NCBI GenBank assembly: GCA_964022095.1
Contig: CAXHZO010000002.1
Span: forward strand, 32,001 to 96,000
Origin: an uncultured Arcobacteraceae bacterium
GTDB taxonomy: Bacteria; Campylobacterota; Campylobacteria; Campylobacterales; Arcobacteraceae
DNA length: 64,000 bases
Reading direction: 5' to 3'
Shown here: piece by piece, positions 20,461 to 61,913 of the stretch
Layout: each line of letters opens with the position of its first letter
How positions within the stretch are numbered: the first letter of the stretch is position 1
Made by a program: the position numbers and the translations under genes
Notes under the pieces: model-generated
Databases searched by the model: none
Told to the model about the DNA's origin: nothing
What the model saw: only the letters and a program-made list of their open reading frames with translations

Positions 20461-21570
20461 TCATTTCTTATCCAAATAGTTTTGAAGCTCTTTTATTGCT
20501 GCTTCATTTTTAATTCTAAATTTTATTTCGATTCTTCTCGAAGCATTTTTATCTTCAACACCTTTTTGTAAAATCATATCTGAATATGACCTTCCACTAG
20601 CGCTTACGTATTTTGTTAGTAAATCTTTATTTACAATATTTGATTCAAATAAAAACTTCATAACTTCTAGTGCTCTTTGTTGTGATAACTCAAGATTAGC
20701 TAAGTATGTACCATCACTATTTGTATGTCCTTCGATTATTATGCTATCAATATATTTTTTTATATCATTATTATCAAAAAGTGCAGACATATAGTTCTTT
20801 AAAATAGATTTTAATTCTTCTTTTGAGTCCTCTTTTAGTTTGTATTCACCTTGTCCAAATAAAATATTTGAAGAGAATTTTATGGCACCACTTTTTGAAT
20901 CAATATCGATTGAATTACCAAGTTTTTCTTTTAGTTTTGTAATTACAGTTAGTTTAATACCTGTTAAGTGTTTGATTTTTGTTTTTGTAATATCAAACTC
21001 TTCTACAAGTTTTTGATGTACTTTTAGCTGCTCTAGTAGTTTATCTTGTAAAAGCCCTAATTCATCATCTTTTAGTTTTATAAAGTTGTTTTTTTCATCA
21101 AGTTTTACTTGTAAGCTATCTAACTTATTTGTTTCATCTTTTAATTTTAATTCATAATCTAAAAGTAGGGCTTTGAGTTTTTCTATTTCTTCATTTGATA
21201 AATTAACATTTTTTAAAGCATCATCTAAAGATAGTTTTAAGTTCTCTTGATTTTCTTCTAGTTGTGAATATAGTTTTTGTGATTGTGCTAAATCAAAAGC
21301 TAATCTAGTATTTTCTTCTAATGAAGATTTTAATTTTTTATTAATATCTTCAAGTTGAGATGTTCTACTTTTTAGCTCTTCTTCACTCATATTTAATGCA
21401 AGTTTTTCTTTTTCTAAATCTGTTTTAATAGCTTGTAGGTCAGTTTGAGTATATAAGTATTTTATAATAATTGCACCAATTACAAGTATAAAAACAAATA
21501 GCAATCCTGCCATTAAATCTGCATAAGATATCCAGAAGTTTTCATTGTTTTCTTTATTATTGTTGTACAT
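20461..21570 (-). CDS. MotB/ZorB-like protein: TM helix, long coiled coil, OmpA-like peptidoglycan-binding domain
   Basis: FWISYADLM TM motif with Asp; IEGHT..G....N.ELSQQRA and SRRIEI. Confidence 0.85.
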   Translation of the reverse strand: MYNNNKENNENFWISYADLMAGLLFVFILVIGAIIIKYLYTQTDLQAIKTDLEKEKLALNMSEEELKSRTSQLEDINKKLKSSLEENTRLAFDLAQSQKLYSQLEENQENLKLSLDDALKNVNLSNEEIEKLKALLLDYELKLKDETNKLDSLQVKLDEKNNFIKLKDDELGLLQDKLLEQLKVHQKLVEEFDITKTKIKHLTGIKLTVITKLKEKLGNSIDIDSKSGAIKFSSNILFGQGEYKLKEDSKEELKSILKNYMSALFDNNDIKKYIDSIIIEGHTNSDGTYLANLELSQQRALEVMKFLFESNIVNKDLLTKYVSASGRSYSDMILQKGVEDKNASRRIEIKFRIKNEAAIKELQNYLDKK

Positions 21571-21572
21571 GA

Positions 21573-22793
21573 CTATTTAGAGATCTCTTTAAACTCTTGT
21601 AAATCTTCAATAATTTTGACTGTTTGCGTATCAATAGCCTCAAGTGAAGTTTTGAGTTTTTCAGTAAATTTTGTATCGTAGTCATCTAATTCTTGTGTAA
21701 ATTTCCAACCAATTTTATCTGTTTCATTTTTCATAGTATTGATATTTTTAATCACACTTGAATAAATCTCTTCAACATTTGTTGAGTTTAGGTTTGAAAG
21801 TGTTGAGTTTAGATTTTCAATATTTTGACTTAAAATATTTGTACTATTTTGATAGTCATCTTTTTGTTCAGTAAATTTTGACATATTTGTCTCTATATTC
21901 AAAGTCATAAGTTTTATTTGTTCGAATAGTTTTTCAAAATTTTCAACATTTGATTTAATATTATGAACTAAAAGTTGCTCTTCTTTGATAATTGTTTCTA
22001 CCACTTGAGCTCTTTTTTCAAGTGAGTTATTGATTTCATTTAATAAATTAGTTGATGTGATTTGCTCAAATAGTTGACTCATTTTTTCAAAGTTTTTCAT
22101 ACTGCTTTGTAAGTGAATTGATTCAATATCAAGTTTTGTCCAAAAGAATGACTTAGTGTTTTCTTTGATAATAAATACATCATGCTCAAACCTACTCATA
22201 CCAATTTTTTCAAAAAATATCCACCAAAGTGATAAAAAAATACCATAAATTGATACATAAAAAGCAGTGCCAACACCACCTAAAAGTACAGTGATTTCTT
22301 TTTCTAAAGCACTAGAAGTTCCAGAAGAAAAATCAGGCATAGAAAATGCAATTGAGATAAATGTACCCAAAATACCAAGTGTGGGAAAAACCCCTGAAGC
22401 TATCGATGAGAAGTTTGTATTTCTAATATTACTAGTGAACTCTTTTAAAAAGTCATCAACATTACCGTTTGCTTTTGTTGTTTCCCCAATAGTTAGAAGA
22501 TTGTCATTTATGTAGTTTTTTAAATGCTCAACTAATTGTTTATATTGAGATTTAAATTTGCATGATACATAATAAGCATTATGTTTTACAAAAAATAGAT
22601 ATATAAAATAAATAAATCCAATAAGAATCACACTATGAATTTCTACTTTTAGTGGAAAATATTCAAAGTAACCAAGTACAACTAATGCAAAAACTAAAGT
22701 TGGAACAGTAAGTAAATTAAAAATTCTAGCACTAGCTTTGCAGTGAGTGTAGAAGTTCTTATTTAGAAATATAAAGTCTTCTCGTGTAACCAT
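21573..22793 (-). CDS. MotA/TolQ/ExbB-family (ZorA-like) channel subunit with long helical tail
   Basis: PTLGILGTF and GTAFYVSIYGI channel helices; about 210-aa heptad-rich C-terminal tail. Confidence 0.8.
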   Translation of the reverse strand: MVTREDFIFLNKNFYTHCKASARIFNLLTVPTLVFALVVLGYFEYFPLKVEIHSVILIGFIYFIYLFFVKHNAYYVSCKFKSQYKQLVEHLKNYINDNLLTIGETTKANGNVDDFLKEFTSNIRNTNFSSIASGVFPTLGILGTFISIAFSMPDFSSGTSSALEKEITVLLGGVGTAFYVSIYGIFLSLWWIFFEKIGMSRFEHDVFIIKENTKSFFWTKLDIESIHLQSSMKNFEKMSQLFEQITSTNLLNEINNSLEKRAQVVETIIKEEQLLVHNIKSNVENFEKLFEQIKLMTLNIETNMSKFTEQKDDYQNSTNILSQNIENLNSTLSNLNSTNVEEIYSSVIKNINTMKNETDKIGWKFTQELDDYDTKFTEKLKTSLEAIDTQTVKIIEDLQEFKEISK

Positions 22794-36972: not shown

Positions 36973-37440
36973 ATGAAAAATTTATTTAAAATTGATACAG
37001 TAAAAGCTCATTGTGATGTTCCTTGTGGAATTTATGATCCAATTACAGCACAGATTGCTGCACTTTCTGTTATACGAATGGTTGACCTTATGGAAGGTTT
37101 AGAAAAGTCTGACTCTTTAGAGTATTCAAACACTATTTCAAGACACATCGCCGTTAAAGAAGAAGAAGCTGAAAAAGTAAAACATGAAATTAGAATTATT
37201 TGGGGTGATTTTATTAAGCCTCCTCAAATTGAGAAATATCCTGAAATTCATAAAATAGTACATAATATTATGATGCTAGGTAGTGAAAATAGACAACATG
37301 TATCTAGAGACAAAGCTCTTGAATTACTAAAAGAAGTAAATAAATTTGCTCAAATTTTTTGGGAAATCAAAGAAAAACAAACAAAAACGGTTAAAGCACC
37401 ATATGCACCAAATGAGGATATTGTAGTACCAGTATTATAA
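36973..37440 (+). CDS. sodN: nickel-containing superoxide dismutase
   Basis: 12-aa leader followed by the Ni-hook HCDVPCGIYDP; KEE.AE.VKHE and W.DF.K. Confidence 0.95.
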   Translation: MKNLFKIDTVKAHCDVPCGIYDPITAQIAALSVIRMVDLMEGLEKSDSLEYSNTISRHIAVKEEEAEKVKHEIRIIWGDFIKPPQIEKYPEIHKIVHNIMMLGSENRQHVSRDKALELLKEVNKFAQIFWEIKEKQTKTVKAPYAPNEDIVVPVL

Positions 37441-37721
37441 TGTTTAAACTTTTTAAATGTGAGGGAAATTCACTTTTCCCTCTATATAAAGATTCTCAAA
37501 CTATACTTACAATTAAAAAAAATAGATTTCTTAGTTTTAAAGTAGGAGATGTAGTTGTGTTTTTTCATAAAGATTATGGATTGATGATTAAAATAATCAA
37601 AGAAATAAAAGATAATAGTTTTTATGTAATAGGAACAAGTCCTGATAGTATAGATAGCAGAAACTTTGGATATATATCAAAAAATGATATAAAATACAAA
37701 GTTTTGTTTAAAATTTTCTAA
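37440..37721 (+). CDS. sodX: Ni-SOD maturation peptidase (S26 family)
   Basis: GNS..P (Ser), GDVVVF, MIK (Lys) and SIDSRNFG; TAATG stop/start overlap with sodN. Confidence 0.85.
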   Translation: MFKLFKCEGNSLFPLYKDSQTILTIKKNRFLSFKVGDVVVFFHKDYGLMIKIIKEIKDNSFYVIGTSPDSIDSRNFGYISKNDIKYKVLFKIF

Positions 37722-38230
37722 CTATTTTTACCATGGCCTTTACTATGTCCATGTCCACTTTGACCTTCTCTTTGTAAAAGTTCATCAAAGTTTTCTCCAC
37801 CAATATTATATGCTTTCCCAAATCCAAATACTGCTTCGCCATAAGTTGGTGAAAATTCAAATATATAGAAATCAGCCATACTTGATAAAGTATTTATCAT
37901 ATCTTCATCAAATTTAATTTTAAATTGCTCTAAAACTTCTTTTTCTTCACTACTTTCTTGCTTGAATCTTTTAGAATAACATTGCAGTGAAACTCTTTTT
38001 CTTGCAAATATATTTTTACACTCATTTTCATCTTCAATTAATAAAAGAGAACACTTATTATTAATAATAAGATTTTGAGAGTGTTTTGCCATTAGTGACA
38101 AATATACATAATATTTGCTATTGTATTTTACAAAAGGTGCATATGATGAAAAAGGAAACTCTTTATCATCTAGAGAGTTTATACAAACACTTTTTATTGA
38201 GTCTATAAACTCATTTAATTCTTTACTCAT
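37718..38230 (-). CDS. HugZ/HutZ-like pyridoxamine-5'-phosphate oxidase-family protein
   Basis: SYAPF, S.MAKHSQNL, IEDE....IFARKR and FGFGKAY; His-rich tail. Confidence 0.82.
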   Translation of the reverse strand: MSKELNEFIDSIKSVCINSLDDKEFPFSSYAPFVKYNSKYYVYLSLMAKHSQNLIINNKCSLLLIEDENECKNIFARKRVSLQCYSKRFKQESSEEKEVLEQFKIKFDEDMINTLSSMADFYIFEFSPTYGEAVFGFGKAYNIGGENFDELLQREGQSGHGHSKGHGKNS

Positions 38231-40620
38231 TACTCTTCACTCCATAATAATTCTATTTCTAAATCAAATATATCTTTTCTTCTTGGTTTTATAAATATCT
38301 CTTCAATTTCATAATTTGAGATTTTATACTCTTCATTAATCTCTTCAATACTAGTTTCTAACTCTTTTTGAAGACCTACAATTTCATCTTGCATAACTTG
38401 TATATCTTCTTTTACATATTTAACATCATTTCTTTCTTTCATGATTTTACCAGCTTTTCTAGCACTTGTAGCAACTTTTCCTATATTAGTCTTAGAAACT
38501 AGTGACTTACCAAAAAATGCTCCTATAATTGATGTACCAATAGATATAATTGTATCAGTTGTAGTTGAACTTGCTTGTGCTTCTTCTTTTTCTAATTTAT
38601 CATATAAAGACTCTAGTTTTTTCTCTAATGATTTTTCGTTTTTTTCAAACTTTTCTTGAAGCTTTTCTACTTGTTCATCTATTGATTCATTTAATCTATC
38701 TTGCATTCTAATTTTAAAATCTTCATATGATTCATTTTGTTTTGAAACTAATTTTAATTTTTTGTTTGAAAATAGAGTTAATTTTTTATTTCTATAAATA
38801 AAATTACTAAACTCTTTTTGTAAAGCTTTTATTTCACTATCATTTTGAATAAATGTAGGAATATCATAAAAGTTTGAATTAGGTCTATTTTTACTTTCAT
38901 AATTTAAAGACTCTAAAGTTTCTAATTCCTCAAAATTTAACTCTTGTACTTTTTTATTAAGATAGTATTTATATTTAAACTCTTGTTTGTCATCTATATT
39001 TTTTGAAGTATTAACAAAATGAACTTTACAACATAGTGTTAAATAAGGCTGTAAATAGTAACTATCACTTTGAGATACATAATTATACTTTTGAGGTAAA
39101 TTATTAGCAAGAATAGGCTTTATTGTGTTTTTAGACTCATGATTTGGTGCTTGTCTTTTTATATCTTGTTTTTCTTGAATATTATTTGAACTAGGGGCTA
39201 TAAATGATTTGATTTTTTCAATCTTTTCACTCATTAGTTTTTTTATATCATCTTTTGAAATAGGACCTTTTAGATATGATAGAACCCATCTTGTTTTAAA
39301 TATTTTAATTCCATCTTCATTTATATTTTTCATTATAAAGGTTCTTTTTTCTAAATTAGAAATTAGTTTTGAGATTTCACTTTTATTAATAGCACCTTCA
39401 TTTGCTGAACTTAGTCCATCTATAACTTTTTCAATGTCTTGTTTTGTTTGTAGTCTTCCTATAAACCAAGTACCAATATTTGATAAACCTTTGTAATCTA
39501 TATCAACAGGGTTTTGTGTTGATAAAATAACACCAATACCAAAAGATCTAGCTTGTTTTAAAAGAGTAAGCATTGGTTGTTTAGATGGTGGGTTTTTTGA
39601 AGGTGGAAAGTATCCAAATATTTCATCCATATAAAGTAGGGCTTTTAATGAACTGGTACCTTCTTGTCTTCTCATCCATGAAACCATTTGATTTAATAAA
39701 AGTGAAACAAAGAACATTCTTTGGGAATCATTTAAATGTGCAATTGAAAAAATTGATACTTTTGCTTTTCCATTTTCGTCATATAATAAATTTGAAATAT
39801 CTAAAGGCTGACCTTCAATCCATTGTTTAAATGATGGGTTTGCAATAATTGTATTTAGTTTTAATGCAAGTTTTAATCTATCATCTTGTGTAAAGAACGT
39901 TTCTAAATCAAATATTCCCACTTTTGAAAAAGGAGGAGTAACTATAAGTGTAATTAACTCTTCTAAACTTAAGTCTTTGTTTTGTGTGTAGTAATTCATA
40001 AATATTGAAGATATTAGTATAAACTCTTTTGATGTAGTGTCATTTTTTTCATCAATTAATGAAAGAATAGAAGATACAGTTGAATTAACTAATGAAACTA
40101 ATAAGTCGTGATCTTGTAAAACTTCATTTGATGGAGATTTAAAAGTAGAAAGAATTGATATTTGAACACCTGAACTACTTCCTGGAGTATAAATAGTAAA
40201 ATCAGCACTATCTTTTAGTTTTTGAATTCTACTTTTATTTTGATGATCTCCTGTAATTCCTTTTTCCCAAAGTTGAGCAGTTTTTTGTGCTTGCTCTTGC
40301 AGTGTAACACCATTGTTTATTGCATCTTGCTCTTCTATCCAAGGTTCAAAGTCACTACCTTTTAGTTGAGGAAATGTCAAAAGTAAATTCCCCATATCAC
40401 CTTTTGGGTCAATAATAATAGAAGGTATATTATCAATAGCAGCTTCTTCTAATAATGAAATACCAAGTCCAGTTTTACCACTACCTGTCATACCAATAAT
40501 AGCTGCGTGTGTTCTTAAGTCTTTGTTTTTATAAACTAGTGGAACAGTTGTTTCATCATCTAGTTTTTCTTTTCCTATGTAAAAAAGTTTTAGTTTTTCA
40601 TAGTCAAATGTGCTACTCAT
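38230..40620 (-). CDS. HerA/FtsK-superfamily ATPase (DUF87/DUF853-like) with C-terminal coiled coil
   Basis: GMTGSGKT, IDPKGD, LYMDE and QARSFG...STQNP. Confidence 0.85.
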   Translation of the reverse strand: MSSTFDYEKLKLFYIGKEKLDDETTVPLVYKNKDLRTHAAIIGMTGSGKTGLGISLLEEAAIDNIPSIIIDPKGDMGNLLLTFPQLKGSDFEPWIEEQDAINNGVTLQEQAQKTAQLWEKGITGDHQNKSRIQKLKDSADFTIYTPGSSSGVQISILSTFKSPSNEVLQDHDLLVSLVNSTVSSILSLIDEKNDTTSKEFILISSIFMNYYTQNKDLSLEELITLIVTPPFSKVGIFDLETFFTQDDRLKLALKLNTIIANPSFKQWIEGQPLDISNLLYDENGKAKVSIFSIAHLNDSQRMFFVSLLLNQMVSWMRRQEGTSSLKALLYMDEIFGYFPPSKNPPSKQPMLTLLKQARSFGIGVILSTQNPVDIDYKGLSNIGTWFIGRLQTKQDIEKVIDGLSSANEGAINKSEISKLISNLEKRTFIMKNINEDGIKIFKTRWVLSYLKGPISKDDIKKLMSEKIEKIKSFIAPSSNNIQEKQDIKRQAPNHESKNTIKPILANNLPQKYNYVSQSDSYYLQPYLTLCCKVHFVNTSKNIDDKQEFKYKYYLNKKVQELNFEELETLESLNYESKNRPNSNFYDIPTFIQNDSEIKALQKEFSNFIYRNKKLTLFSNKKLKLVSKQNESYEDFKIRMQDRLNESIDEQVEKLQEKFEKNEKSLEKKLESLYDKLEKEEAQASSTTTDTIISIGTSIIGAFFGKSLVSKTNIGKVATSARKAGKIMKERNDVKYVKEDIQVMQDEIVGLQKELETSIEEINEEYKISNYEIEEIFIKPRRKDIFDLEIELLWSEE

Positions 40621-44146: not shown

Positions 44147-45526
44147 TTATTTTAAGCTAGATGCATTGATAACTTGGTTTCTTCCACTTTGTTTTGCATT
44201 ATACATTGCAATATCTGCATTGGCTAACACTTCTTTAATTTCACTATGTTTATGGGCTTCACTAACACCAAATGATGCAGTTATTTGTCGTATTTCAAAG
44301 TTTTCATTTTCTATTAATTCTTTAAGTCTTTGAGCAATTATATTAGCTTCACTTTCATTTGTATTTTTACAAATTACTAAAAACTCTTCACCACCCCATC
44401 TTCCTAAAATATCATTAGAGTTTGTATTTTCTTTTAATAATTTTGCAAGACGAATTAATACTTTATCTCCCTCTAAGTGCCCAAAAACATCATTTATTTC
44501 TTTAAAGTTATCAATATCTAATAAAATTAAAGAGTACTTTTTGTTTTTTAATTGATTTAAAATCTCATCTATTTTTCTTCTATTGTAAAGTTTTGTTAAT
44601 GAGTCGGTTGTTGATAGCTCTTGTAACTGTTTATTATACTTTTTTAAATCTTTTTGTTTAAATATATAAAAGAGTATTAAAAGTATTAGTAAAATTATTA
44701 TTTGATAAAAGTATTCATAGTCTACAAATCTTTTATCAAACTTTACAGTTAGCCATTGATTGATTAAATCAGCTTTATCTTTTAGTGTTATTTGTGCAAT
44801 ATGTTTATTTATGACACTTAGTAGTTCTGGGTAATCATTTCTTACCATAAAAGAAATATTTACTTTTTCATCACTAGTCCCAGAAATTTTAAGATTATAG
44901 TACCCATTTAATGATATTAAGTGTGCAATTACAGGTAAAATGTCAATTACTGCATCAACTTTTCCTGCACTTAGTAGTTTCATCGCTACTTCAGTGTTTT
45001 TTACAAGTATAAAATTAATTTTCGGATATCTTTTTTTCATAATTAAGTAAGAACTATAGTTTTCACCCACTGCAACTCTTTTACCTTCTAAAAAAGAACC
45101 ATTTGGTATAAATCTTTTATCAAATAGTGTTGCAAAGGCAATAGGAAAAGAGATATAAGGGGTTGAAAATTGAGCATAAGATTTCTTTTGACTATCATAT
45201 GTTGTTCCTAACGTTATATCAGCTTCTTTCTTCTTAATTGAATCTAAAACATCATTCCAATCTTTAGCAATAATTGTATCTGATTTAATTCCTGCTCTTT
45301 GAGAAATTAAGTTCCAAAAATCAACAGCAATTCCTGATAATTTTTCTTCTTTATTATTCATGTTTATAGGTGCCCAAGTTTTCGAAGAAATTACTTTTAT
45401 ATTGGTATTTTCAATAAAACTTTTTTCTTCATTCGATAGTGAAATATATGATGCTACATCTTCTTGAGAATAGGCTATATTTATAAGAATCAATAAAGAA
45501 CTAATTAATTTAGTAAAACTTTTCAT
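44147..45526 (-). CDS. diguanylate cyclase with periplasmic solute-binding (PBPb) sensor
   Basis: signal peptide, WAP..GIAVD SBP domain, TM; TD.LT.L.NRR, DIDNFK.IND.FGH and GGEEF. Confidence 0.9.
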   Translation of the reverse strand: MKSFTKLISSLLILINIAYSQEDVASYISLSNEEKSFIENTNIKVISSKTWAPINMNNKEEKLSGIAVDFWNLISQRAGIKSDTIIAKDWNDVLDSIKKKEADITLGTTYDSQKKSYAQFSTPYISFPIAFATLFDKRFIPNGSFLEGKRVAVGENYSSYLIMKKRYPKINFILVKNTEVAMKLLSAGKVDAVIDILPVIAHLISLNGYYNLKISGTSDEKVNISFMVRNDYPELLSVINKHIAQITLKDKADLINQWLTVKFDKRFVDYEYFYQIIILLILLILFYIFKQKDLKKYNKQLQELSTTDSLTKLYNRRKIDEILNQLKNKKYSLILLDIDNFKEINDVFGHLEGDKVLIRLAKLLKENTNSNDILGRWGGEEFLVICKNTNESEANIIAQRLKELIENENFEIRQITASFGVSEAHKHSEIKEVLANADIAMYNAKQSGRNQVINASSLK

Positions 45527-45885: not shown

Positions 45886-48702
45886 TTACTTTATACTTAA
45901 CTCTTTTTCTAAATAATATCCAGTATATGAACCAGATTTTTTGTGATTTTTAGCTAGATTTTCAGGAGTTCCTTCATCAACTATCATACCACCTTTACTT
46001 CCACCTTCAGGACCCATATCTATAACCCAATCAGAATTTTTAATTACATCTAAATTATGCTCAATTACAAGTACAGAGTTTCCAACTTCAACAAGGTGAT
46101 GTAAAACTTTTGTAAGTCTATCAACATCTGCAAAGTGAAGTCCTGTTGTTGGCTCATCTAATACATAAAGAGTATTTCCAGTATCTTTTTTACTTAACTC
46201 TTTTGATAGTTTGATTCTTTGAGCTTCTCCTCCTGAAAGTGTTACAGCATTTTGACCAAGAGTAATATATCCAAGTCCCACATCGCTTAAAGTTTGAAGT
46301 TTAGCTTTAATTTTTGGAACTTTTATAAAGAACTCTAAAGCTTCATCAACACTCATACTTAATACTTCAGATATATTTTTCCCTTTATATAAAATCTCTA
46401 ATGTTTGAGCATTATATCTATGTCCACCACAGTCATCACACTTAACCATAATATCTGGTAAGAAGTGCATTTCAATTTTTATTTCACCTTCACCTTGACA
46501 TTTTTCACATCTTCCACCTTTAACATTAAATGAAAATCTACCTATTTTATAACCTCTAAGGCTAGCTTCTTTTGTTTTAGAAAATAGTGTTCTAATTTCA
46601 TCCATTAAACCTGTATACGTTGCAGGGTTAGATCTTGGAGTTCTACCAATTGGTGATTGGTCTAAGTAGATCACTTTATCAAGTTTTTCAAGTCCAGTTA
46701 TTTCAACTCCATCAACTTTGTTTACTTTTCTAGCATGATTTAATAACTCTTTTGCTACTGGAAGTAGGGTTTGTAAAATAAGTGAAGATTTCCCACTTCC
46801 ACTAACCCCTGTAATTGCACAAAGGTTTTTTAGTGGAATTTGAACATTTAGATTTTCAATATTATTTATCGTTACATTTTTTATTTCAATAAACTCTTCT
46901 TGGGGTCTATTGTGTGCATAATCGATTTTCTTTTTTCCATTCATGTACTGTGCAGTTAGTGTTTTTGCTTTGTTCATTTGAGGAAGTGTTCCTGCAAATA
47001 CAATTTCTCCACCATATTTACCTGCATTTGGACCAATATCAACTATATAATCAGCAGCTTCAATTGTCTCTTTATCATGCTCAACTACAATTACAGTATT
47101 ACCTTTTTCTTGTAAGGCTTTTAGTGTTTTAATAAGTTTACTTGTATCTCTTTCATGTAAACCAATTGATGGCTCATCAAGTACATACATTACACCAGTT
47201 AATCCAGAACCAATTTGTGAAGCAACTCTAATTCTTTGAGCTTCTCCCCCTGAAATTGTTCTTGCATCTCTTCCTAGTGTTATATATCCAAGTCCTACAT
47301 CATGTAAGAAGAAAATTCTCTCTTTTATCTCTTTTAAAATTGGTTTTGAAATCATTTGATTTTGTTCATTAAAGTATTCAAAGTTTTTTTCATCTTGGAA
47401 AAATGCATGGGCATCTTCAATTGGTTGGTTTATAATATCTGAAATGGTTTTTTGAGCTACAAAAACACTTTGAGAAGATGGTTTTAATCTATTTCCATTA
47501 CAGTCACTACATCTTTTTTCAGTCATGTATTCAGCCATCTCTTTTTCATCTTTGATCATGTCATATGCTAGCTTTATTACACCTTCCCATTTTCTTGTAA
47601 GTTTATGTCTTTTCCATGTAAATTTTGCTTCTTCTACCCCACCATGTAAAATTGCTTTTTGTTTATGAGAGGGTAACTCTTTAAATGGTATTTTAATATC
47701 AATATCAGCTGCTTCACAATAAGCCATAAGCATTTTGAAATAAAAACCTTTATTAAATCCATAGATGACTTTAATTGCACCATCTTCAAGTGGCAACTCA
47801 TCATTAACTACTTTTTTCATATCAAGTGCATATCTAATACCAAGTCCATCACAAGAACTACAAGCTCCTTTTGGTGAGTTAAATGAGAATGATAATGGCT
47901 CTAATGGTTCAAAAGATATTTTACAATCAAAACAAGCCATGTGCTCACTATAGTGAATATGTTTATCCGTTCCAACTTCCTCATGATTCATAACTTCAAC
48001 TTCAAGCTCTCCAAAAGATTCTTTTAAACCTTTCTCTACATCTTGTGCAATTCTATCTTTGTTTTCTTCTTTGATAACTACTCTATCAATTACTACTTTG
48101 ATAGTATGCATTTTATTCTTTTCTAATTCTATGTCTTCATCAAGTCTTGCCATAACTCCATCAATCATGGCTCTTACATAACCTTTACCTCTAAGACTTT
48201 CAAGTAAATCAGCAAATGTTCCTTTTTTCCTATTTATTAATGGTGCTAAAATAACTATTTTTGAATTATCAGGTAATTTCAATACTTGATCAATTACATC
48301 ACTTGCACTCATTTGTGAAATAGGTTCGCCACATTTATGACAATGTTGTTTTCCAACTCTTGCATATAGTAATCTTAAGTAATCATATACTTCTGTAATC
48401 GTTCCAACAGTTGATCTTGGATTTTTAGAAGTTGTTTTTTGATCAATTGCAATTGCAGGAGTTAAACCTTCAATTCTTTCAACATCAGGTTTTCCTACTT
48501 TGTCCAAGAATTGTCTAGCATAAGCAGAAAGTGATTCTATATATCTTCTTTGACCTTCTGCGTATAATGTATCAAACGCTAGTGTAGATTTACCAGAACC
48601 AGATAGTCCTGTAAAAACTATTAGCTTGTTTTTGGGTATTTCTAGATTTATATTTTTTAAATTATTTTCTTTTGCATTAAATATTTTGATTGAATCTTTC
48701 AT
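45886..48702 (-). CDS. uvrA: excinuclease ABC subunit A
   Basis: two ABC ATPase modules (GLSGSGKS, GVSGSGKS, SGGEAQR) and zinc fingers. Confidence 0.98.
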   Translation of the reverse strand: MKDSIKIFNAKENNLKNINLEIPKNKLIVFTGLSGSGKSTLAFDTLYAEGQRRYIESLSAYARQFLDKVGKPDVERIEGLTPAIAIDQKTTSKNPRSTVGTITEVYDYLRLLYARVGKQHCHKCGEPISQMSASDVIDQVLKLPDNSKIVILAPLINRKKGTFADLLESLRGKGYVRAMIDGVMARLDEDIELEKNKMHTIKVVIDRVVIKEENKDRIAQDVEKGLKESFGELEVEVMNHEEVGTDKHIHYSEHMACFDCKISFEPLEPLSFSFNSPKGACSSCDGLGIRYALDMKKVVNDELPLEDGAIKVIYGFNKGFYFKMLMAYCEAADIDIKIPFKELPSHKQKAILHGGVEEAKFTWKRHKLTRKWEGVIKLAYDMIKDEKEMAEYMTEKRCSDCNGNRLKPSSQSVFVAQKTISDIINQPIEDAHAFFQDEKNFEYFNEQNQMISKPILKEIKERIFFLHDVGLGYITLGRDARTISGGEAQRIRVASQIGSGLTGVMYVLDEPSIGLHERDTSKLIKTLKALQEKGNTVIVVEHDKETIEAADYIVDIGPNAGKYGGEIVFAGTLPQMNKAKTLTAQYMNGKKKIDYAHNRPQEEFIEIKNVTINNIENLNVQIPLKNLCAITGVSGSGKSSLILQTLLPVAKELLNHARKVNKVDGVEITGLEKLDKVIYLDQSPIGRTPRSNPATYTGLMDEIRTLFSKTKEASLRGYKIGRFSFNVKGGRCEKCQGEGEIKIEMHFLPDIMVKCDDCGGHRYNAQTLEILYKGKNISEVLSMSVDEALEFFIKVPKIKAKLQTLSDVGLGYITLGQNAVTLSGGEAQRIKLSKELSKKDTGNTLYVLDEPTTGLHFADVDRLTKVLHHLVEVGNSVLVIEHNLDVIKNSDWVIDMGPEGGSKGGMIVDEGTPENLAKNHKKSGSYTGYYLEKELSIK

Positions 48703-48815
48703 TAATAGTTGCCTTTAAATTTTTGAAGCTAATATTATAGGGTACATTACATAATAATCTATTAAAGATAATTTAGATATTTTTTGAAAGTGACTTACAT
48801 AAAAAGGTTATTAGT

Positions 48816-51362
48816 GTGAATAGATATATTAATAATTTTAGGTTCGGTGATAATTTATTTTATTACTGTGATTTAAAAAAGCTTTATAATGATTATCCTG
48901 TTTTAGAAAAATTGCCTAATTGTTTAAAAGTATTATTAGAATCAAATGTTAGAAATAGTAATGATTATAATTTAGAATCTATTATTGATATATTTGTCTC
49001 AAAAAATAAAAATAAAAAAATTCAGTTCGAAGCAACTAGAATTATTATGCAAGATTTAACTTCAATTCCTATTTTAATTGATTTGGCTTCTATGAGAGAA
49101 GAGGCTTTAAATATAGGTGAAGATATAGATAAAATTAATCCAAACGTTATGGTCGATTTAATTATTGACCACTCTTTAGATATATCAAAAACAAGCACTT
49201 CTGATAGCTTGGAAATAAATTTAAAAAATGAAATATCAAAAAATGAAGAGAAATATGAGTTTATTAAATGGGCTTCTAATAGTTTTAAAAACTTTTCAGT
49301 AGTTCCTCCTGGTTTTGGAATATCTCATCAAATAAATTTAGAATACCTTTCTACAATGATTTGTTTAAAACAAATAGATGAAAAGGTTTTTATATATCCT
49401 GAAACCGTTGTTGGTACTGATTTACACACAAGTATGATTAACTCATTAGGTATTTTAGGATGGGAAATAGGTGGCCTTGAAGCACAATGTATGATGTTTG
49501 ATTCTCATTCATCATTCTCTTTACCTAGTATTACAGGTGTAAAGTTAGTTGGAACATTAGATCAAGGTGTTACTATAAGTGATGTTGCTTTAAGTTTTAC
49601 AAACTTTATAAATGAACTAAAAACACATCAAGAGTTTATAGAGTTTTATGGTGAAGGGATAAAAGAGTTATCCTTAGAAGATAGAGCAACAATATCAAAT
49701 ATGGCAAATGAGTATAATGTTGCAGTGTCATTTTTTGGAGTTGATGATAATACTATTTCATATATTGAAAAAACTAGAGGGGTTGATGCTTCGCTAATTA
49801 GACAATACTATACTTTACTTGGTATGTATAATAATTATGATCAACTTGATTATGATGAAAACCTAGAGTTTGATTTATCTTTAGTTAAACCAGTTGTTGC
49901 AGGACCAGCAAGTTCTGAAAATAAAGTTTTAGCAAATAAAGTTCCTAGTAAGTTAAAAAGTTTTAAAAGAGGTAATTTATTAAAAGCAAATGATATTGTT
50001 TTAGGAAGTATAACTTCTTGTATGAGTAGTTCTAATCCTAGCTTAATAATTCAAGCAGCCCTTTTAATCAAAAATGCCATAAATTATGGTTTGGAAATAA
50101 ACTCAAATATCAAAAAAGTTTTTGCACCAGGTTCATATGTAGTTAAGTCTTATTTGAAACAATTAGATTTGTTAAAATATTTTGAGCATATTGGTTTTCA
50201 TATCTCAGGCTTTGGTTGTGCTAGTTGTTTTGGAAATAGTGGAGATTTATTACCTGGAATTGTTGATGAAATTACAAAGTATGACTTAGATGTAAGTTCA
50301 GTTAGTAGCGGCAATAGAAATTTTAAAGAAAATGTAAATCCTTTAGTTAAATCAAACTGGCTAATGTCTCCTGCTTTAGTAGTTGCATACTGTTTAAAAG
50401 GAACAATTAATTGTAATATTATTGATGATGAAATTTCAAAAGGGGTATATCTTAATGATATTTGGCCTAGTAATTTAGAAGTAAATGAGTATCTAAATAA
50501 AATTGATTCTTTACTGTACTTAAAAAGTTATAACAACATTTTTTTAGGAAATAATTATTGGCAAGCTTTAAATATACACAATGAGCCAGTATATGATTGG
50601 AATGAAGATTCAACATATATTCACCCTTCAACATTTTCTAAAAATATTAATATAGAAAAAATTGAAATTAAAAACGCTAGATTATTAGCAGTTTTAGGTG
50701 ATGATATATTAAATGAAGATATTTCTGCAATGGGGAAGATTAGTGAGAACTTAATAGCTAGAGAGTACCTTTTAGAAAAAGGAATTTCCGTTTCACAGCT
50801 TGGAACTTTTGAAAATAGAAAAGGGAATGTTGATTTAATGATAAGAGGAATTTTATCTTCCCCTAATTTAAAAAATAGAATTATATCTCCAAAAGAGGGC
50901 AGTTTGACAAGAGATTATGAAACAAATGAAATAATTTCAATATTTGAATTCTCAAAGAAAATGAAAGCTAAAAACACTCCTTTAGTTCTTTTTGTAGGAG
51001 ATAATTTTGGAGGAGGAGTTATTAGAGATTGGGCATCAAAAGGTTTAAGTATGTTAGGAGTTAAAGCAATTGTTGCAAAATCTTTTGATCATAACTTTAA
51101 ACTAAATTTAGTAAGAGTAGGAATACTACCTTTAGAGTTTGATAAAAATAATGTGGATTCTATAGAGTTTAGTGGAGAAGAGAAAATATCAATTAAAAGG
51201 GAAAATTTAATACCTAATGAAAAAATTGAATTAGATATTGAAAAAAATGGTTTTATTAAAACAGTTATAGTTCAATCTAAATTAGAAAACTTACAAGAAA
51301 TTGATTATTATAGAAGTGGTGGGGCTTTATCTTATATATTTAAAAACATTTACTCTTTTTAA
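48816..51362 (+). CDS. AcnA/IRP-family aconitase homologue, predicted catalytically inactive
   Basis: MQD, IDHS, HQINLE, ITSC, GCASC.GNSG, SGNRNF and RDW..KG present; GSSR replaced by GVIR. Confidence 0.88.
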   Translation: MNRYINNFRFGDNLFYYCDLKKLYNDYPVLEKLPNCLKVLLESNVRNSNDYNLESIIDIFVSKNKNKKIQFEATRIIMQDLTSIPILIDLASMREEALNIGEDIDKINPNVMVDLIIDHSLDISKTSTSDSLEINLKNEISKNEEKYEFIKWASNSFKNFSVVPPGFGISHQINLEYLSTMICLKQIDEKVFIYPETVVGTDLHTSMINSLGILGWEIGGLEAQCMMFDSHSSFSLPSITGVKLVGTLDQGVTISDVALSFTNFINELKTHQEFIEFYGEGIKELSLEDRATISNMANEYNVAVSFFGVDDNTISYIEKTRGVDASLIRQYYTLLGMYNNYDQLDYDENLEFDLSLVKPVVAGPASSENKVLANKVPSKLKSFKRGNLLKANDIVLGSITSCMSSSNPSLIIQAALLIKNAINYGLEINSNIKKVFAPGSYVVKSYLKQLDLLKYFEHIGFHISGFGCASCFGNSGDLLPGIVDEITKYDLDVSSVSSGNRNFKENVNPLVKSNWLMSPALVVAYCLKGTINCNIIDDEISKGVYLNDIWPSNLEVNEYLNKIDSLLYLKSYNNIFLGNNYWQALNIHNEPVYDWNEDSTYIHPSTFSKNINIEKIEIKNARLLAVLGDDILNEDISAMGKISENLIAREYLLEKGISVSQLGTFENRKGNVDLMIRGILSSPNLKNRIISPKEGSLTRDYETNEIISIFEFSKKMKAKNTPLVLFVGDNFGGGVIRDWASKGLSMLGVKAIVAKSFDHNFKLNLVRVGILPLEFDKNNVDSIEFSGEEKISIKRENLIPNEKIELDIEKNGFIKTVIVQSKLENLQEIDYYRSGGALSYIFKNIYSF

Positions 51363-52099
51363 GAGATAAATGTTTTATATACCATTGTAATTAAAATTAC
51401 AATATTTAAAATTAGGATATATTTTTTATATGAAGTTGAATTAATAGTATGTTTAGCTTTAATACCAAAAAATACTCCAATAAGTGAAGCAATACCTACT
51501 ATTGCACCTTCTAAAAATAGCATATGTCCATGCAGTGACATAGATGTAAATCCTGCAATTGAAGAGAATATTACAAAGAATAGTCCAAGTGAAGTCGCTG
51601 ATTTTAGGTCATATCTTAAGAATCCTACTAAAATAGGAGTTAATAGAATTGATCCTCCAACACCTATACTCATAGCAAAAATACCAATGAAAAAGCCAAT
51701 TACAAATAAAACAAACTTATTATGAGTTTTCGATTCTTGATTATGTTCTGCAGGTGAGAAAAATATTTTAACAATAGAGAAAATCAATATAGCAATAAAT
51801 ATATATTGTAAAGTTTCATTAGAAACATTAGAAACAATTAAACCACTTTGAAGACCACCAACAAAACCTCCAATACCAATAATTATTCCATCTTTTAAAA
51901 CATTTTTTGCTTTTTTCGCATTTAAAAAAGAGCCATAAATTGAACTAAATACCATTTGCATTATAGATATTGCAATTGCTTGTTTCATAACAAAACCAGC
52001 AACAAGTAGCATTGGAACAAGTACCATTCCTCCTCCAACTCCAAAAAAGCCAGAGATAAAACCTGTTAATACCCCAAATAGTAAAAGTTCAAGTATCAT
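51359..52099 (-). CDS. TauE/SafE (TSUP) family transporter
   Basis: two G.GGG...P repeats; about 8 TM segments. Confidence 0.88.
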   Translation of the reverse strand: MILELLLFGVLTGFISGFFGVGGGMVLVPMLLVAGFVMKQAIAISIMQMVFSSIYGSFLNAKKAKNVLKDGIIIGIGGFVGGLQSGLIVSNVSNETLQYIFIAILIFSIVKIFFSPAEHNQESKTHNKFVLFVIGFFIGIFAMSIGVGGSILLTPILVGFLRYDLKSATSLGLFFVIFSSIAGFTSMSLHGHMLFLEGAIVGIASLIGVFFGIKAKHTINSTSYKKYILILNIVILITMVYKTFIS

Positions 52100-57690: not shown

Positions 57691-58332
57691 ATGTCTCATG
57701 TTTATTCGTATGTTAGAGTTAATAAAAATAATGAATCATATACTCAAAACCAAAAGGTCTCAATTAGCAATTATATTGATGAACATAATATTTCTATTTA
57801 TAAAGAGTTTGAGATAGAAATTTCAAGTTCACATGAAGAGAAAAATATCTTAGAACTTTTAAGAAATAGTGAAAAAAATTCAACATTAATTGTTTCTGAT
57901 TTAAATGTATTTGGTAGAACAATTGAAACAATTTTAGAAATTGTTAAATTCTTGCTTTCTAATAAAGTTAGAATAATAGCTATAAAACAAAACCTTGAAT
58001 TAGTAGATGATAAAGACATGTTAACTCAAATGATTTTAGGCGTTATTTCAATGACTATGAATTTAGAAAAAGATTTAATGAGTCTAAGAACAAAAGAAGC
58101 TTTAAGTGTAAAAAAACAAAATGGAATTGCCTTAGGTAAACCAAAAGGTACAATTCAAAAGTCAAAATTTGATGATCAAAGAGATAAAATTGAAGAGTTA
58201 TTACAACTTGGTTTATCTGTTAGAAAAATTGCAAAACTTCTTGGTTATAACAATCATATTGGATTAAATAACTATGTTAAGAAGAGAAAGATAAGAGAAA
58301 ATTTGCCTAATACTCTTAATATCGCTAGCTAA
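57691..58332 (+). CDS. serine resolvase-family protein lacking catalytic residues, with C-terminal HTH
   Basis: Y.RVN instead of Y.RVS; LNVFGR instead of L[DS]RLGR; E....RTKEAL, LGKPKG and GLSVRKIAKLLG. Confidence 0.85.
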   Translation: MSHVYSYVRVNKNNESYTQNQKVSISNYIDEHNISIYKEFEIEISSSHEEKNILELLRNSEKNSTLIVSDLNVFGRTIETILEIVKFLLSNKVRIIAIKQNLELVDDKDMLTQMILGVISMTMNLEKDLMSLRTKEALSVKKQNGIALGKPKGTIQKSKFDDQRDKIEELLQLGLSVRKIAKLLGYNNHIGLNNYVKKRKIRENLPNTLNIAS

Positions 58333-60808: not shown

Positions 60809-61114
60809 ATGAATATAATTACATTTAATCAGATTGATGAGTCATTATTTAATGATGAATTTAATGTTGAGCATTTTCATACAGGAACTAGTGAAAAAGC
60901 TGATATTGTTATATTAGACATAGATACAATTTTTGAATTTGAAGAAAATAAAGCAGAAGTTACTAAAGATAAATATGTTTCAATAGCTGTTATTGAAGAT
61001 GAAAGTGATTATGATGCTTTCAAAAACTTTGGTATTGATGCATGGATTTTAGGAAGTGAGCTTTCTCAAGTTAATAACATTGTAAATTTAGTTAATAAAA
61101 GATTTTTATCGTAA
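60809..61114 (+). CDS. small acidic protein, possible degenerate receiver domain
   Basis: ADIVILDI, SIAV and AF..FGIDAWI pattern; GGAG RBS. Confidence 0.55.
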   Translation: MNIITFNQIDESLFNDEFNVEHFHTGTSEKADIVILDIDTIFEFEENKAEVTKDKYVSIAVIEDESDYDAFKNFGIDAWILGSELSQVNNIVNLVNKRFLS

Positions 61115-61124
61115 GGAATAAGTT

Positions 61125-61913
61125 ATTATTTTAGATACACACTGTCATTTAGACAATGAAAAGTTTTATGAAGATATTGATGCTGTAATTAAAAATGCAC
61201 TTGACCATGGAGTTAAAGGTTTTTTAATTCCTGGTGCAGACTTTAAAGACTTACCTCAAGCTATTAAACTTGCAGAAAAGTATGATGAAGTATTTTTTTC
61301 AGTAGGAATTCATCCTTATGATTGTGATTCATATGATGAATCAGTCATGGAAAAGTATGTTAATCATCCTAAATGTATTGCAATAGGTGAATGTGGTTTA
61401 GATTATTTTAGACTTCCAGAAGACGAAGAAGAAAAAAAAGCTAATGTAGCAAAACAAAAAGAGGTCTTTATCTCTCAAATAGAGTTTGCTAAAAAAGTAA
61501 AAAAACCTTTAATTGTACATATTAGAGAAGCTTCAGATGATTCAAGAACAATTCTTATGGATTATAATGCAAAAGAAGTAGGAGGGGTTTTACACTGTTT
61601 TAATGCAAGTGAACATCTATTACCATTAGCAGATCATGGGTTTTATTATGGAATAGGCGGAGTTTTAACTTTTAAAAATGCGAAAAAATTAGTTGATGTA
61701 TTACCTAAAATCCCACAAGAAAAGTTAATAATTGAAACTGATGCACCATATTTAACCCCGCACCCTCATAGGGGAAAAAGAAATGAACCTTACTACACTG
61801 TTTTTGTTGCAGATAAAATGGCTGAATTACTTAATAAATCTAGAGATGAGATAGAAGAGTTAACTACAAACAATGCGATAAAATTATTTAATGAGTTTTC
61901 TAGTATATCTTAG
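61125..61913 (+). CDS. tatD: TatD family deoxyribonuclease (probable ATT start)
   Basis: frame open from 61122 with DTHCH, GIHP, IGECGLDY, H.R, LHCF and ETD.P; the ORF-track start at 61347 omits the HxH ligands. Confidence 0.88.
   Translation: MILDTHCHLDNEKFYEDIDAVIKNALDHGVKGFLIPGADFKDLPQAIKLAEKYDEVFFSVGIHPYDCDSYDESVMEKYVNHPKCIAIGECGLDYFRLPEDEEEKKANVAKQKEVFISQIEFAKKVKKPLIVHIREASDDSRTILMDYNAKEVGGVLHCFNASEHLLPLADHGFYYGIGGVLTFKNAKKLVDVLPKIPQEKLIIETDAPYLTPHPHRGKRNEPYYTVFVADKMAELLNKSRDEIEELTTNNAIKLFNEFSSIS

Follow-up and report, generated by a model that had tools for sequence, protein, structure and literature searches.

What is left of an aconitase once its catalytic residues are gone, and why would a bacterium keep the gene? 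The question is raised by a locus in a stretch of 64,000 nucleotides from an uncultured Arcobacteraceae bacterium (GenBank assembly GCA_964022095.1, contig CAXHZO010000002.1, positions 32,001 to 96,000), which was analysed at its full length and which we call the window. An open reading frame (ORF) at 48816..51362 (+ strand), with the start codon GTG, encodes a four-domain protein of 848 amino acids (aa) of the AcnA/IRP1 type. An initial annotation, made from the letters of the sequence, took this protein for a pseudo-aconitase that had kept its iron-sulfur (Fe-S) ligands and lost its catalytic serines. Our data support this non-catalytic reading and widen it to a clade of intact relatives (tree support 100), none of which has more than 13 of 18 canonical active-site residues. 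The gene probably encodes a non-catalytic, or "dead", AcnA-type aconitase, one of a clade that occupies the site between uvrA and tauE-cysE in the two Arcobacteraceae genomes compared.

An aconitase fold without the catalytic half of its active site

The initial annotation had described an uninterrupted 848-aa frame of the AcnA/IRP1 type, and both parts of this description held. Given the gene's own composition, a stop codon is expected about every 10 codons and an open run of 848 codons has a probability of about 1e-37, while each of the other five frames across the gene contains 31 to 141 stops; the open frame is therefore beyond chance. The choice of start codon fits the 845-aa length of a 72%-identical protein from Malaciobacter pacificus. 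The family assignment was borne out by Pfam (Aconitase PF00330, 3.5e-110; Aconitase_C PF00694, the C-terminal swivel domain, 2.5e-21) and by the NCBIfam model of the AcnA subfamily, NF006757 (848 bits, above the cut-off of 686). The solved structures nearest in sequence are human IRP1 (2b3x, E = 7.4e-166) and then IRP2 (6vcd, 4.4e-150), with mitochondrial aconitase a distant third (E = 1e-30). The cut-offs of two AcnA equivalog models were missed (TIGR01341, 821 versus 945 bits; NF009520, 799 versus 905).

AlphaFold2 (AF2), run with the clade alignment described below, gave a four-domain model with a mean pLDDT of 85.8 and a pTM of 0.85. In Foldseek, the best match of this model was 9a4j_A, the aconitase chain of an ACNA-IDH integrative model (TM 0.84), and the TM scores to closed IRP1 (2b3x) and to IRP1 bound to the iron-responsive element (IRE; 3snp) were 0.79 and 0.74. 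Together with the Pfam and NF006757 matches, these results place the protein in the AcnA/IRP1-type aconitase superfamily with its fold and full length kept. The sole segments of very low confidence, 121-123, 167-174 and 472-474, adjoin former active-site residues; the last of them is the loop after GCASC, with a pLDDT below 50.

We scored 18 canonical active-site positions through the alignment with IRP1, in which the chain index is the IRP1 number minus one. Thirteen are kept in the window protein (Q79, D118, H119, H171, D202, H204, E222, C402, C468, C471, N500, R501 and R737) and five are lost (S206, R541, R713, S778 and S779 of IRP1, which correspond to L203, N506, K669, V735 and I736). The features of the gene are given here, with the residues assigned by alignment:

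48801..48806 (+): likely ribosome-binding site AAAAGG, read from the sequence, 9 bases 5' of the GTG
49167..49172 (+): D118-H119, the DH of IIDHS, kept; unchanged in all eight members of the subclade described below
49419..49427 (+): D202-L203-H204, TDSHT changed to TDLHT; Asp and His kept, substrate-binding Ser replaced by Leu
50019..50021 (+): C402 in ITSCMSS, first cluster ligand, IRP1 C437
50217..50228 (+): C468 (50217-50219) and C471 (50226-50228) in GCASC, cluster ligands 2 and 3, IRP1 C503/C506
50313..50333 (+): N500-R501...N506, NRNFEGR changed to NRNFKEN; IRP1 R536 kept, R541 replaced by Asn
50820..50822 (+): K669, which replaces the Arg of SRRGN (IRP1 R713) and lies opposite the FRGH Arg in the alignment with mitochondrial aconitase
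51018..51032 (+): V735-I736-R737-D738-W739, GSSRDW changed to GVIRDW; both Ser lost, Arg-Asp-Trp kept

Every motif that had been listed in the initial annotation was present as described, whether kept (ITSC, GCASC, DH, HQ with H171, and the Arg of RDW) or changed, and the codons of V735-I736-R737 in GVIRDW lie at exactly 51018-51026. NEDISA, NRKGN and SCMSS are further altered motifs.

With regard to what a functional AcnA possesses, the window protein has all three Cys ligands of a [4Fe-4S] cluster. It lacks the Ser base and the Ser adjacent to it, which are replaced by V735 and I736 and which are present as Ser-Ser in 23 of 23 true AcnA proteins compared; as noted above, it also falls below the TIGR01341 equivalog cut-off. 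We take the serines of GSSRDW to be S642 and S643 of mitochondrial aconitase, in numbering and in role; in that enzyme a Ser is the base and Arg residues bind the carboxylates of the substrate. A third Ser, that of TDSHT, is lost as well, and only two of the four substrate-binding arginines (IRP1 R536, R541, R713 and R780) are kept, as R501 and R737. The change of SRRGN to NRKGN removes a substrate-site Arg, since the FRGH Arg of pig mitochondrial aconitase aligns on K669. That R713 is the fourth substrate Arg is supported by this alignment and by the available parts of PMC4184891. IRP1 "R699", another candidate for the fourth active-site Arg, was rejected, as its column is variable even in true AcnA. 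The active site has thus lost the half that binds the substrate and carries out catalysis, and we infer that the protein would be unable to dehydrate citrate or isocitrate.

A clade of degenerate relatives

A homologue search of a set of 5.8 billion proteins gave 7,242 matches, of which the best 120 were used. The residue alignment contains 120 rows, namely the window protein and 119 of the listed matches, the duplicate P0002 being left out. In 24 of these rows 17 or 18 of the 18 canonical residues are present; they are ordinary AcnA proteins from many phyla and are 37-40% identical to the window protein. The remaining 96, the window protein included, have only 2 to 13. Rows above 90% identity or below 780 aa in length were removed, which left 82 rows for the tree (59 degenerate and 23 true AcnA), in which the degenerate rows were monophyletic with respect to the true AcnA proteins (FastTree SH-like support 100). 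When members from other searches were added, the degenerate clade comprised 75 rows of a 125-row tree (support 100), and no member of the clade exceeds 13 of the 18 canonical residues.

Eight matches bear Arcobacteraceae genus names and all eight are degenerate: Malaciobacter pacificus (the 72%-identical protein), Aliarcobacter, Poseidonibacter, Halarcobacter (two) and Arcobacter (three). A few clade members have broader or doubtful labels ("Campylobacterota bacterium", "bacterium" and "Candidatus Paceibacteria bacterium"). The window gene belongs to this Arcobacteraceae pseudo-aconitase clade by its position in the tree, by its 13 of 18 residues and by its site between uvrA and tauE-cysE. Its relatives are named "aconitate hydratase AcnA" in public records and, once, "aconitase family protein". 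The first of these names is probably a misannotation. Metabolic reconstructions of Arcobacteraceae, a group with marine, food-borne and sewage-associated members, may therefore include a non-existent aconitase.

Pair identity varies little along the clade alignment (0.4-0.6), with minima at 121-140 and at 461-480, the GCxxC loop. Across the clade 39 columns are invariant and about 100 are nearly so. The invariant columns are mostly Gly, Pro, Leu and charged residues and, compared by eye, are largely the same in IRP1; it is therefore the fold that the clade keeps. On the other hand, 35 columns with a conservation of 95% or more among the 23 true AcnA proteins vary freely in the clade, and they sit on the active-site motifs (Cys loops, NRNF, HISP region, RRGN and GSSR). 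In only six columns is a conserved residue of the clade at odds with that of true AcnA; two of these resemble a one-residue alignment shift, and no clade-specific motif emerged from this comparison. Constraint on the protein is lowest in the active-site cleft.

A second group of degenerate proteins was found outside this clade. A profile search of 1.84 billion representatives gave 19,350 relatives at E ≤0.001, and among the best 150 of these there were about a dozen 50%-identity clusters of the Arcobacteraceae type and a separate set of degenerate full-length proteins. A further search showed a second degenerate AcnA-like group of 14 clusters (P0218, P0215, P0231 and P0369-P0379), 858-900 aa in length and with 1-5 of the 18 canonical residues; each lacks at least two of the three Cys, and one keeps C437. 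Its lone named member is an "aconitase family protein" from a metagenome-assembled genome (MAG) of Bdellovibrionales. The group forms a separate long branch, of unsure placement, in the 125-row tree. As it stands apart from the Arcobacteraceae-type clade, dead aconitases may have arisen more than once in bacteria.

The reuse of dead enzymes as regulators or scaffolds is well known in eukaryotes, where IRP2 is the aconitase case. Full-text literature searches, the matches of which were judged mainly from titles and abstract openings, gave no description of a bacterial clade of non-catalytic aconitases, and the terms aconitase, acnA and acnB were not found in the available text of PMC11265409.

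Rapid divergence without breakage at a conserved locus

A profile scan of genome contigs with the clade alignment gave mostly true AcnA, and only one of the 80 loci kept was from Arcobacteraceae. This locus, L003, belongs to a Halarcobacter sp. MAG, and the comparison of synteny and rates is between two genomes, that of the window and that of L003. The immediate neighbours of the gene in the window are:

45886..48702 (-): uvrA, divergent (NCBIfam NF001503, 1383 bits); 92% identical to its L003 counterpart
51359..52099 (-): TauE/SafE-family membrane protein gene, convergent (Pfam TauE, 2.4e-39); the gene ends overlap by 4 bases

These coordinates confirm the arrangement given in the initial annotation, with uvrA divergent and cysE-tauE convergent. 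The TauE gene is followed by cysE, speA, hisS, tmk, coaD and ubiX. The order is the same in L003, where an intact ORF of 783 aa (L003 9998-12349) lies between uvrA and tauE-cysE-speA-hisS-tmk-coaD-ubiX as its counterpart does in the window. Ordered L003 counterparts, 42-92% identical, were found for 18 of the 19 window genes tested.

Compared to its neighbours, the pseudo-aconitase has changed a great deal. Identity between the window and L003 is 92% for uvrA, 79% for cysE, 78% for hisS and 73% for speA; for the pseudo-aconitase it is 35%, the lowest in the block, and the L003 protein retains none of the three Cys and 3 of the 18 canonical residues. Nei-Gojobori estimates (NG86) for the pseudo-aconitase were dN 0.60, dS 1.10 and dN/dS 0.55, a ratio that is rough because dS between the window and L003 is near saturation (about 1). 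The same estimate for eleven neighbours gave a dS of about 1 and dN/dS of 0.07-0.42; for ubiX, dN was 0.28, and dS and the ratio were not computable. In this one cross-genus comparison, the pseudo-aconitase diverged several times faster than its neighbours.

The gene is thus the fastest-changing in the block and is never interrupted, that is, under weak but real constraint. Orthologues and their dN/dS had been named in the initial annotation as a check on its proposal; the orthologues are intact, and the ratio from the window-L003 pair, rough as it is, is about 0.55. As the reading frame has been kept open, something selects for the whole protein. Very fast evolution without breakage is not what one usually sees in a large cytoplasmic protein, and it suggests a function that has gone unrecognised.

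The divergent spacer between uvrA and the pseudo-aconitase gene is 113 bases long in the window versus 263 in L003. Its uvrA-proximal part (about 48735-48770 in the window and about 9760-9795 in L003), compared by eye, contains a common GGG-n-CATTA...ATAATA...TATTAA stretch, which is probably the uvrA promoter region. A scan for promoters and terminators gave 23 promoter-like sites (22 ± 5 expected) and no terminators, and Rfam and tRNA scans of the window gave no match. In PADLOC, neither the window protein nor the L003 protein matched a defence system. No other aconitase-family gene was present among the 61 ORFs of at least 100 aa in the 64-kb window. In Arcobacter butzleri, according to the available parts of PMC2147049, AcnB serves the tricarboxylic acid cycle and AcnD the methylcitrate cycle.

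The cluster site in the window's lineage

The window protein falls in a subclade of eight rows (P0001, P0003, P0004, P0005, P0051, P0053, P0057 and P0065; support 98), all of which have the three Cys and which are separated by appreciable branch lengths (0.1-0.48 per branch). A second homologue search, started from the sister protein P0053, gave no new member of this Cys-retaining subclade. Eight of ten cluster-side residues are unchanged in all its members (the three Cys, D125, H126, D205, H207 and N535), H147 and E262 being slightly variable, compared to none of the eight substrate-side residues (Q86, S206, R536, R541, R713, S778, S779 and R780; Fisher p 0.001).

A similar relationship was seen across the 59 clade rows. 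The 12 rows with all three Cys have an average of 6.0 of the seven non-Cys cluster-side residues, versus 3.0-4.4 in rows that have lost at least one Cys. Among divergence-matched rows, the cluster-side counts were 7, 7, 6, 6, 6, 6 and 5 in those with the Cys triad and 1-6 in the 20 others (Mann-Whitney p 1.5e-4), and there was no such difference on the substrate side (p 0.80).

As the cluster-side residues co-vary with the Cys triad, an Fe-S-dependent, non-catalytic role is plausible for the window's lineage. The pattern points to a two-step history, in which substrate binding and catalysis would have been lost early and the cluster pocket later, in some lineages; where the Cys persist, it points to a pocket that is still selected as a unit. 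The protein of the window's lineage may still bind an Fe-S cluster (or some other metal) for a non-catalytic use. The initial annotation had suggested a protein for Fe-S storage or sensing. With the three Cys in only 12 of 59 members this does not stand as a role of the whole clade, but for the window's lineage its Fe-S part survives in the form just given.

A possible mechanism and the case against it

We tentatively propose that the pseudo-aconitase binds a partner, either a protein or a nucleic acid, through the movement between closed and open domains of which the aconitase fold is capable. In the window's lineage, the presence or loss of the cluster would modulate partner binding, and in many Cys-less relatives the same role would be cluster-independent. 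We hold this mechanism to be possible and place less confidence in it than in the non-catalytic assignment itself.

A bolder idea, which we consider unlikely, is that a redundant AcnA was turned into a dedicated non-enzymatic Fe-S switch in Arcobacteraceae and that its sister lineages became permanently "apo". If this were true, in lineages with the Cys triad, the window's among them, gain and loss of the cluster, which would follow the status of iron, oxygen and reactive oxygen species, would open and close the body of the protein and change what it binds. It would be a bacterial counterpart of the IRP idea, independently reached, and the degenerate group with a Bdellovibrionales name would suggest that the same route has been taken at least twice in bacteria. 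The clade would in any case offer a natural series, in which catalytic residues appear to have been lost first and Fe-S ligands later, and could reveal which parts of an aconitase serve non-enzymatic roles.

Several points weigh against these readings. The full triad is restricted to 12 of the 59 clade members, and many members have a deletion of the GCxxC loop; a function shared by the clade would therefore need no cluster. The retention of the three Cys, taken alone, could be due to chance (p 0.084), and when the association between the triad and the cluster-side residues was corrected for kinship, the three independent contrasts had the same direction with a p of 0.25 at best. The split into cluster side and substrate side is one that we presume from general knowledge of the enzyme, and it was applied post hoc. 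IRP2 retains its three Cys without using a cluster, and those of the window's lineage may simply not yet have been lost. Finally, the comparison of synteny and rates is with one related locus, L003, at a dS near saturation (about 1) that makes the dN/dS of the pseudo-aconitase rough, and the gene neighbourhood points to no partner.

Alternative explanations

Some of these points lead to the first alternative, a cluster-independent scaffold or binding protein. The clade would need only a folded four-domain body, and the Cys and the residues near them would be ancestral leftovers. Such a protein would explain why clade members are full-length throughout although few have the triad, how the syntenic L003 protein can do with 0 of 3 Cys and 3 of 18 canonical residues, and why the clade-invariant columns are, by eye, largely common with IRP1; it is also compatible with the chance retention of the Cys and with a phylogenetically corrected test that is not significant. 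However, the cluster-side residues follow the Cys triad whatever the overall divergence, while the substrate-side residues do not, and in the subclade of the window protein 8 of 10 residues on the first side and 0 of 8 on the second are unchanged despite branch lengths of 0.1-0.48. We regard this scaffold as possible though doubtful.

A second possibility is the bacterial IRP2-like regulator that the initial annotation had put forward: an aconitase body, apo at all times or under some conditions, would take up mRNA stem-loops in its cleft and regulate genes for iron or redox functions. RNA binding occurs among the apo-aconitases of several bacteria, and IRP2 itself has only two changes relative to an active aconitase among the 18 positions (R536K and S778N) and keeps its Cys. 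In the available parts of PMC3048577 and PMC4184891, the contacts of IRP1 with the IRE are R269, S371, K379, T438, N439, S681, P682, R713, R780, D781 and W782. Five of these 11 residues are identical in the window protein, namely R780, D781 and W782 of the C-bulge pocket together with K379 and S681. The other six are changed (R269N, S371A, T438M, N439S, P682A and R713K), and the columns are variable in the clade, with Arg in 39% of members at R780 and in 36% at R713, for example. In the true AcnA set, by contrast, nine of the 11 columns are invariant, the other two being mostly Ala and Arg, unlike IRP1.

Other observations were no more favourable to RNA binding. The 35 columns freed in the clade are concentrated on the motifs of the cleft in which an RNA would lie. 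The window protein is acidic (pI 5.1), and the median pI is 5.6 in the clade versus 6.3 in true AcnA. A scan of the window for CAGUGN hairpins gave 38 CAGTGN sites, of which three had at least 4 of 5 stem pairs; all three are inside coding sequence, and none was convincing. In the alignment with 6vcd, the domain 1 insert of IRP2 (about 80 residues, IRP2 residues ~134-216) has no counterpart in the window protein. IRP-type RNA binding by the window protein is not supported by these comparisons, and a regulator of this kind is improbable; binding in a different mode is conceivable.

The third possibility is that the protein is still an Fe-S hydro-lyase, one that acts on a different, less carboxylated substrate with another residue as its base. 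The window protein still has its cluster ligands and an unaltered Asp/His network next to them, and there are AcnA variants whose active-site changes form a coherent signature of another kind: P0128, P0307 and P0380 have Q86H, S206A/V, R536H/Q and R541K/H and keep the Cys triad and Ser-Ser-Arg. P0128 and P0307 branch beside the dead clade in the 125-row tree. The three may be real enzymes for another substrate and possibly represent the state ancestral to the dead clade. Within the subclade of the window protein, however, the position of the Ser base is occupied by V, V, N, S, K, Q, E and K, and the R541, R713 and R780 columns vary likewise; neither a substitute base nor a substrate site is therefore conserved. 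To our knowledge, aconitase, isopropylmalate isomerase and homoaconitase all keep the Ser base. An altered enzyme is, in our view, slightly less probable still than an IRP2-like regulator.

Early decay, a pseudogene in the making without function, which the initial annotation had kept as a caveat, would fit a gene that ranks first in dN/dS (0.55) and last in identity (35%) within the syntenic block and that has lost catalytic residues. We nevertheless consider it very improbable, as 848 codons are open where a stop is expected about every 10 (~1e-37), the L003 ORF is intact though dS is about 1, dN/dS is below 1, the AF2 fold prediction is confident and the clade comprises 59 non-redundant full-length relatives, in whose alignment 39 columns never vary and about 100 hardly do.

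Other genes in the window

Several further genes of the window deserve mention in their own right. At 20461-22793 (-), two adjacent genes have weak matches to Zorya ZorB1 (5.8e-23, below the cut-off) and ZorA and also match peptidoglycan binders of the MotB/OmpA type; they could be a Zorya-like or a stator-like pair. At 37718-40620 (-; L003 1466-4314), a gene for a 796-aa ATPase of the HerA/DUF87 type (PADLOC mad8, 1.4e-14, and HerA models) overlaps a HutZ/HugZ-like heme-utilisation gene by one base, and the two are 70% and 52% identical to their L003 counterparts. Nickel superoxide dismutase is encoded by sodN at 36973-37440 (+; 1.4e-49), near the heme-utilisation gene and about 11 kb upstream of the pseudo-aconitase; no link between sodN and the pseudo-aconitase gene was seen in the window.

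The only one of the 19 genes tested that has no counterpart in L003 lies at 44147-45526 (-) and encodes a GGDEF diguanylate cyclase with an N-terminal part of the periplasmic substrate-binding type. A serine recombinase/invertase-like gene (Mpi family, 1.8e-32) stands between ubiX and rplI at 57691-58332 (+); its counterpart in L003 (18723-20030) is 75% identical, and there are two 213-aa ORFs in tandem there. An ORF for a TatD/YchF-family nuclease at 61347-61913 (+) matches only positions 78-252 of a profile of 253, with the first ~77 residues missing or elsewhere, which could reflect a wrong start, a split or a frameshift. Just upstream of it, a 101-aa ORF at 60809-61114 had no family match.

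Comparison with known systems

One parallel is the second degenerate group with its Bdellovibrionales member, which like the window protein is full-length and AcnA-like; unlike it, the group lies on a separate branch and has lost at least two of the Cys. AcnD, the Fe/S-dependent dehydratase of the methylcitrate cycle, is AcnA-like too and is found in Arcobacter butzleri (available parts of PMC2147049). The window protein scored 518 bits against TIGR02333, the cut-off of which is 1420, its catalytic residues are lost, and no prpF, prpB or prpC was among the 61 window ORFs scanned; AcnD was therefore rejected as its identity.

With bacterial AcnA and with cytosolic aconitase/IRP1, the window protein shares the family, the fold, the Cys triad and the Asp/His network. 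It differs from AcnA in the absence of the Ser base, the adjacent Ser, the Ser of TDSHT and two of the four substrate arginines.

Of all known systems, the nearest is IRP2 (IREB2), the non-catalytic paralogue of animals. IRP2 is changed at two of the canonical positions and the window protein at five, and IRP2 keeps SRRGN, HISP and RDW. IRP2 is eukaryotic, binds the IRE and has its own insert, and the clade to which the window protein belongs is mostly without the Cys. What the two have in common is a four-domain body of the AcnA/IRP1 type in which the catalytic Ser has been replaced and the three Cys have been kept.

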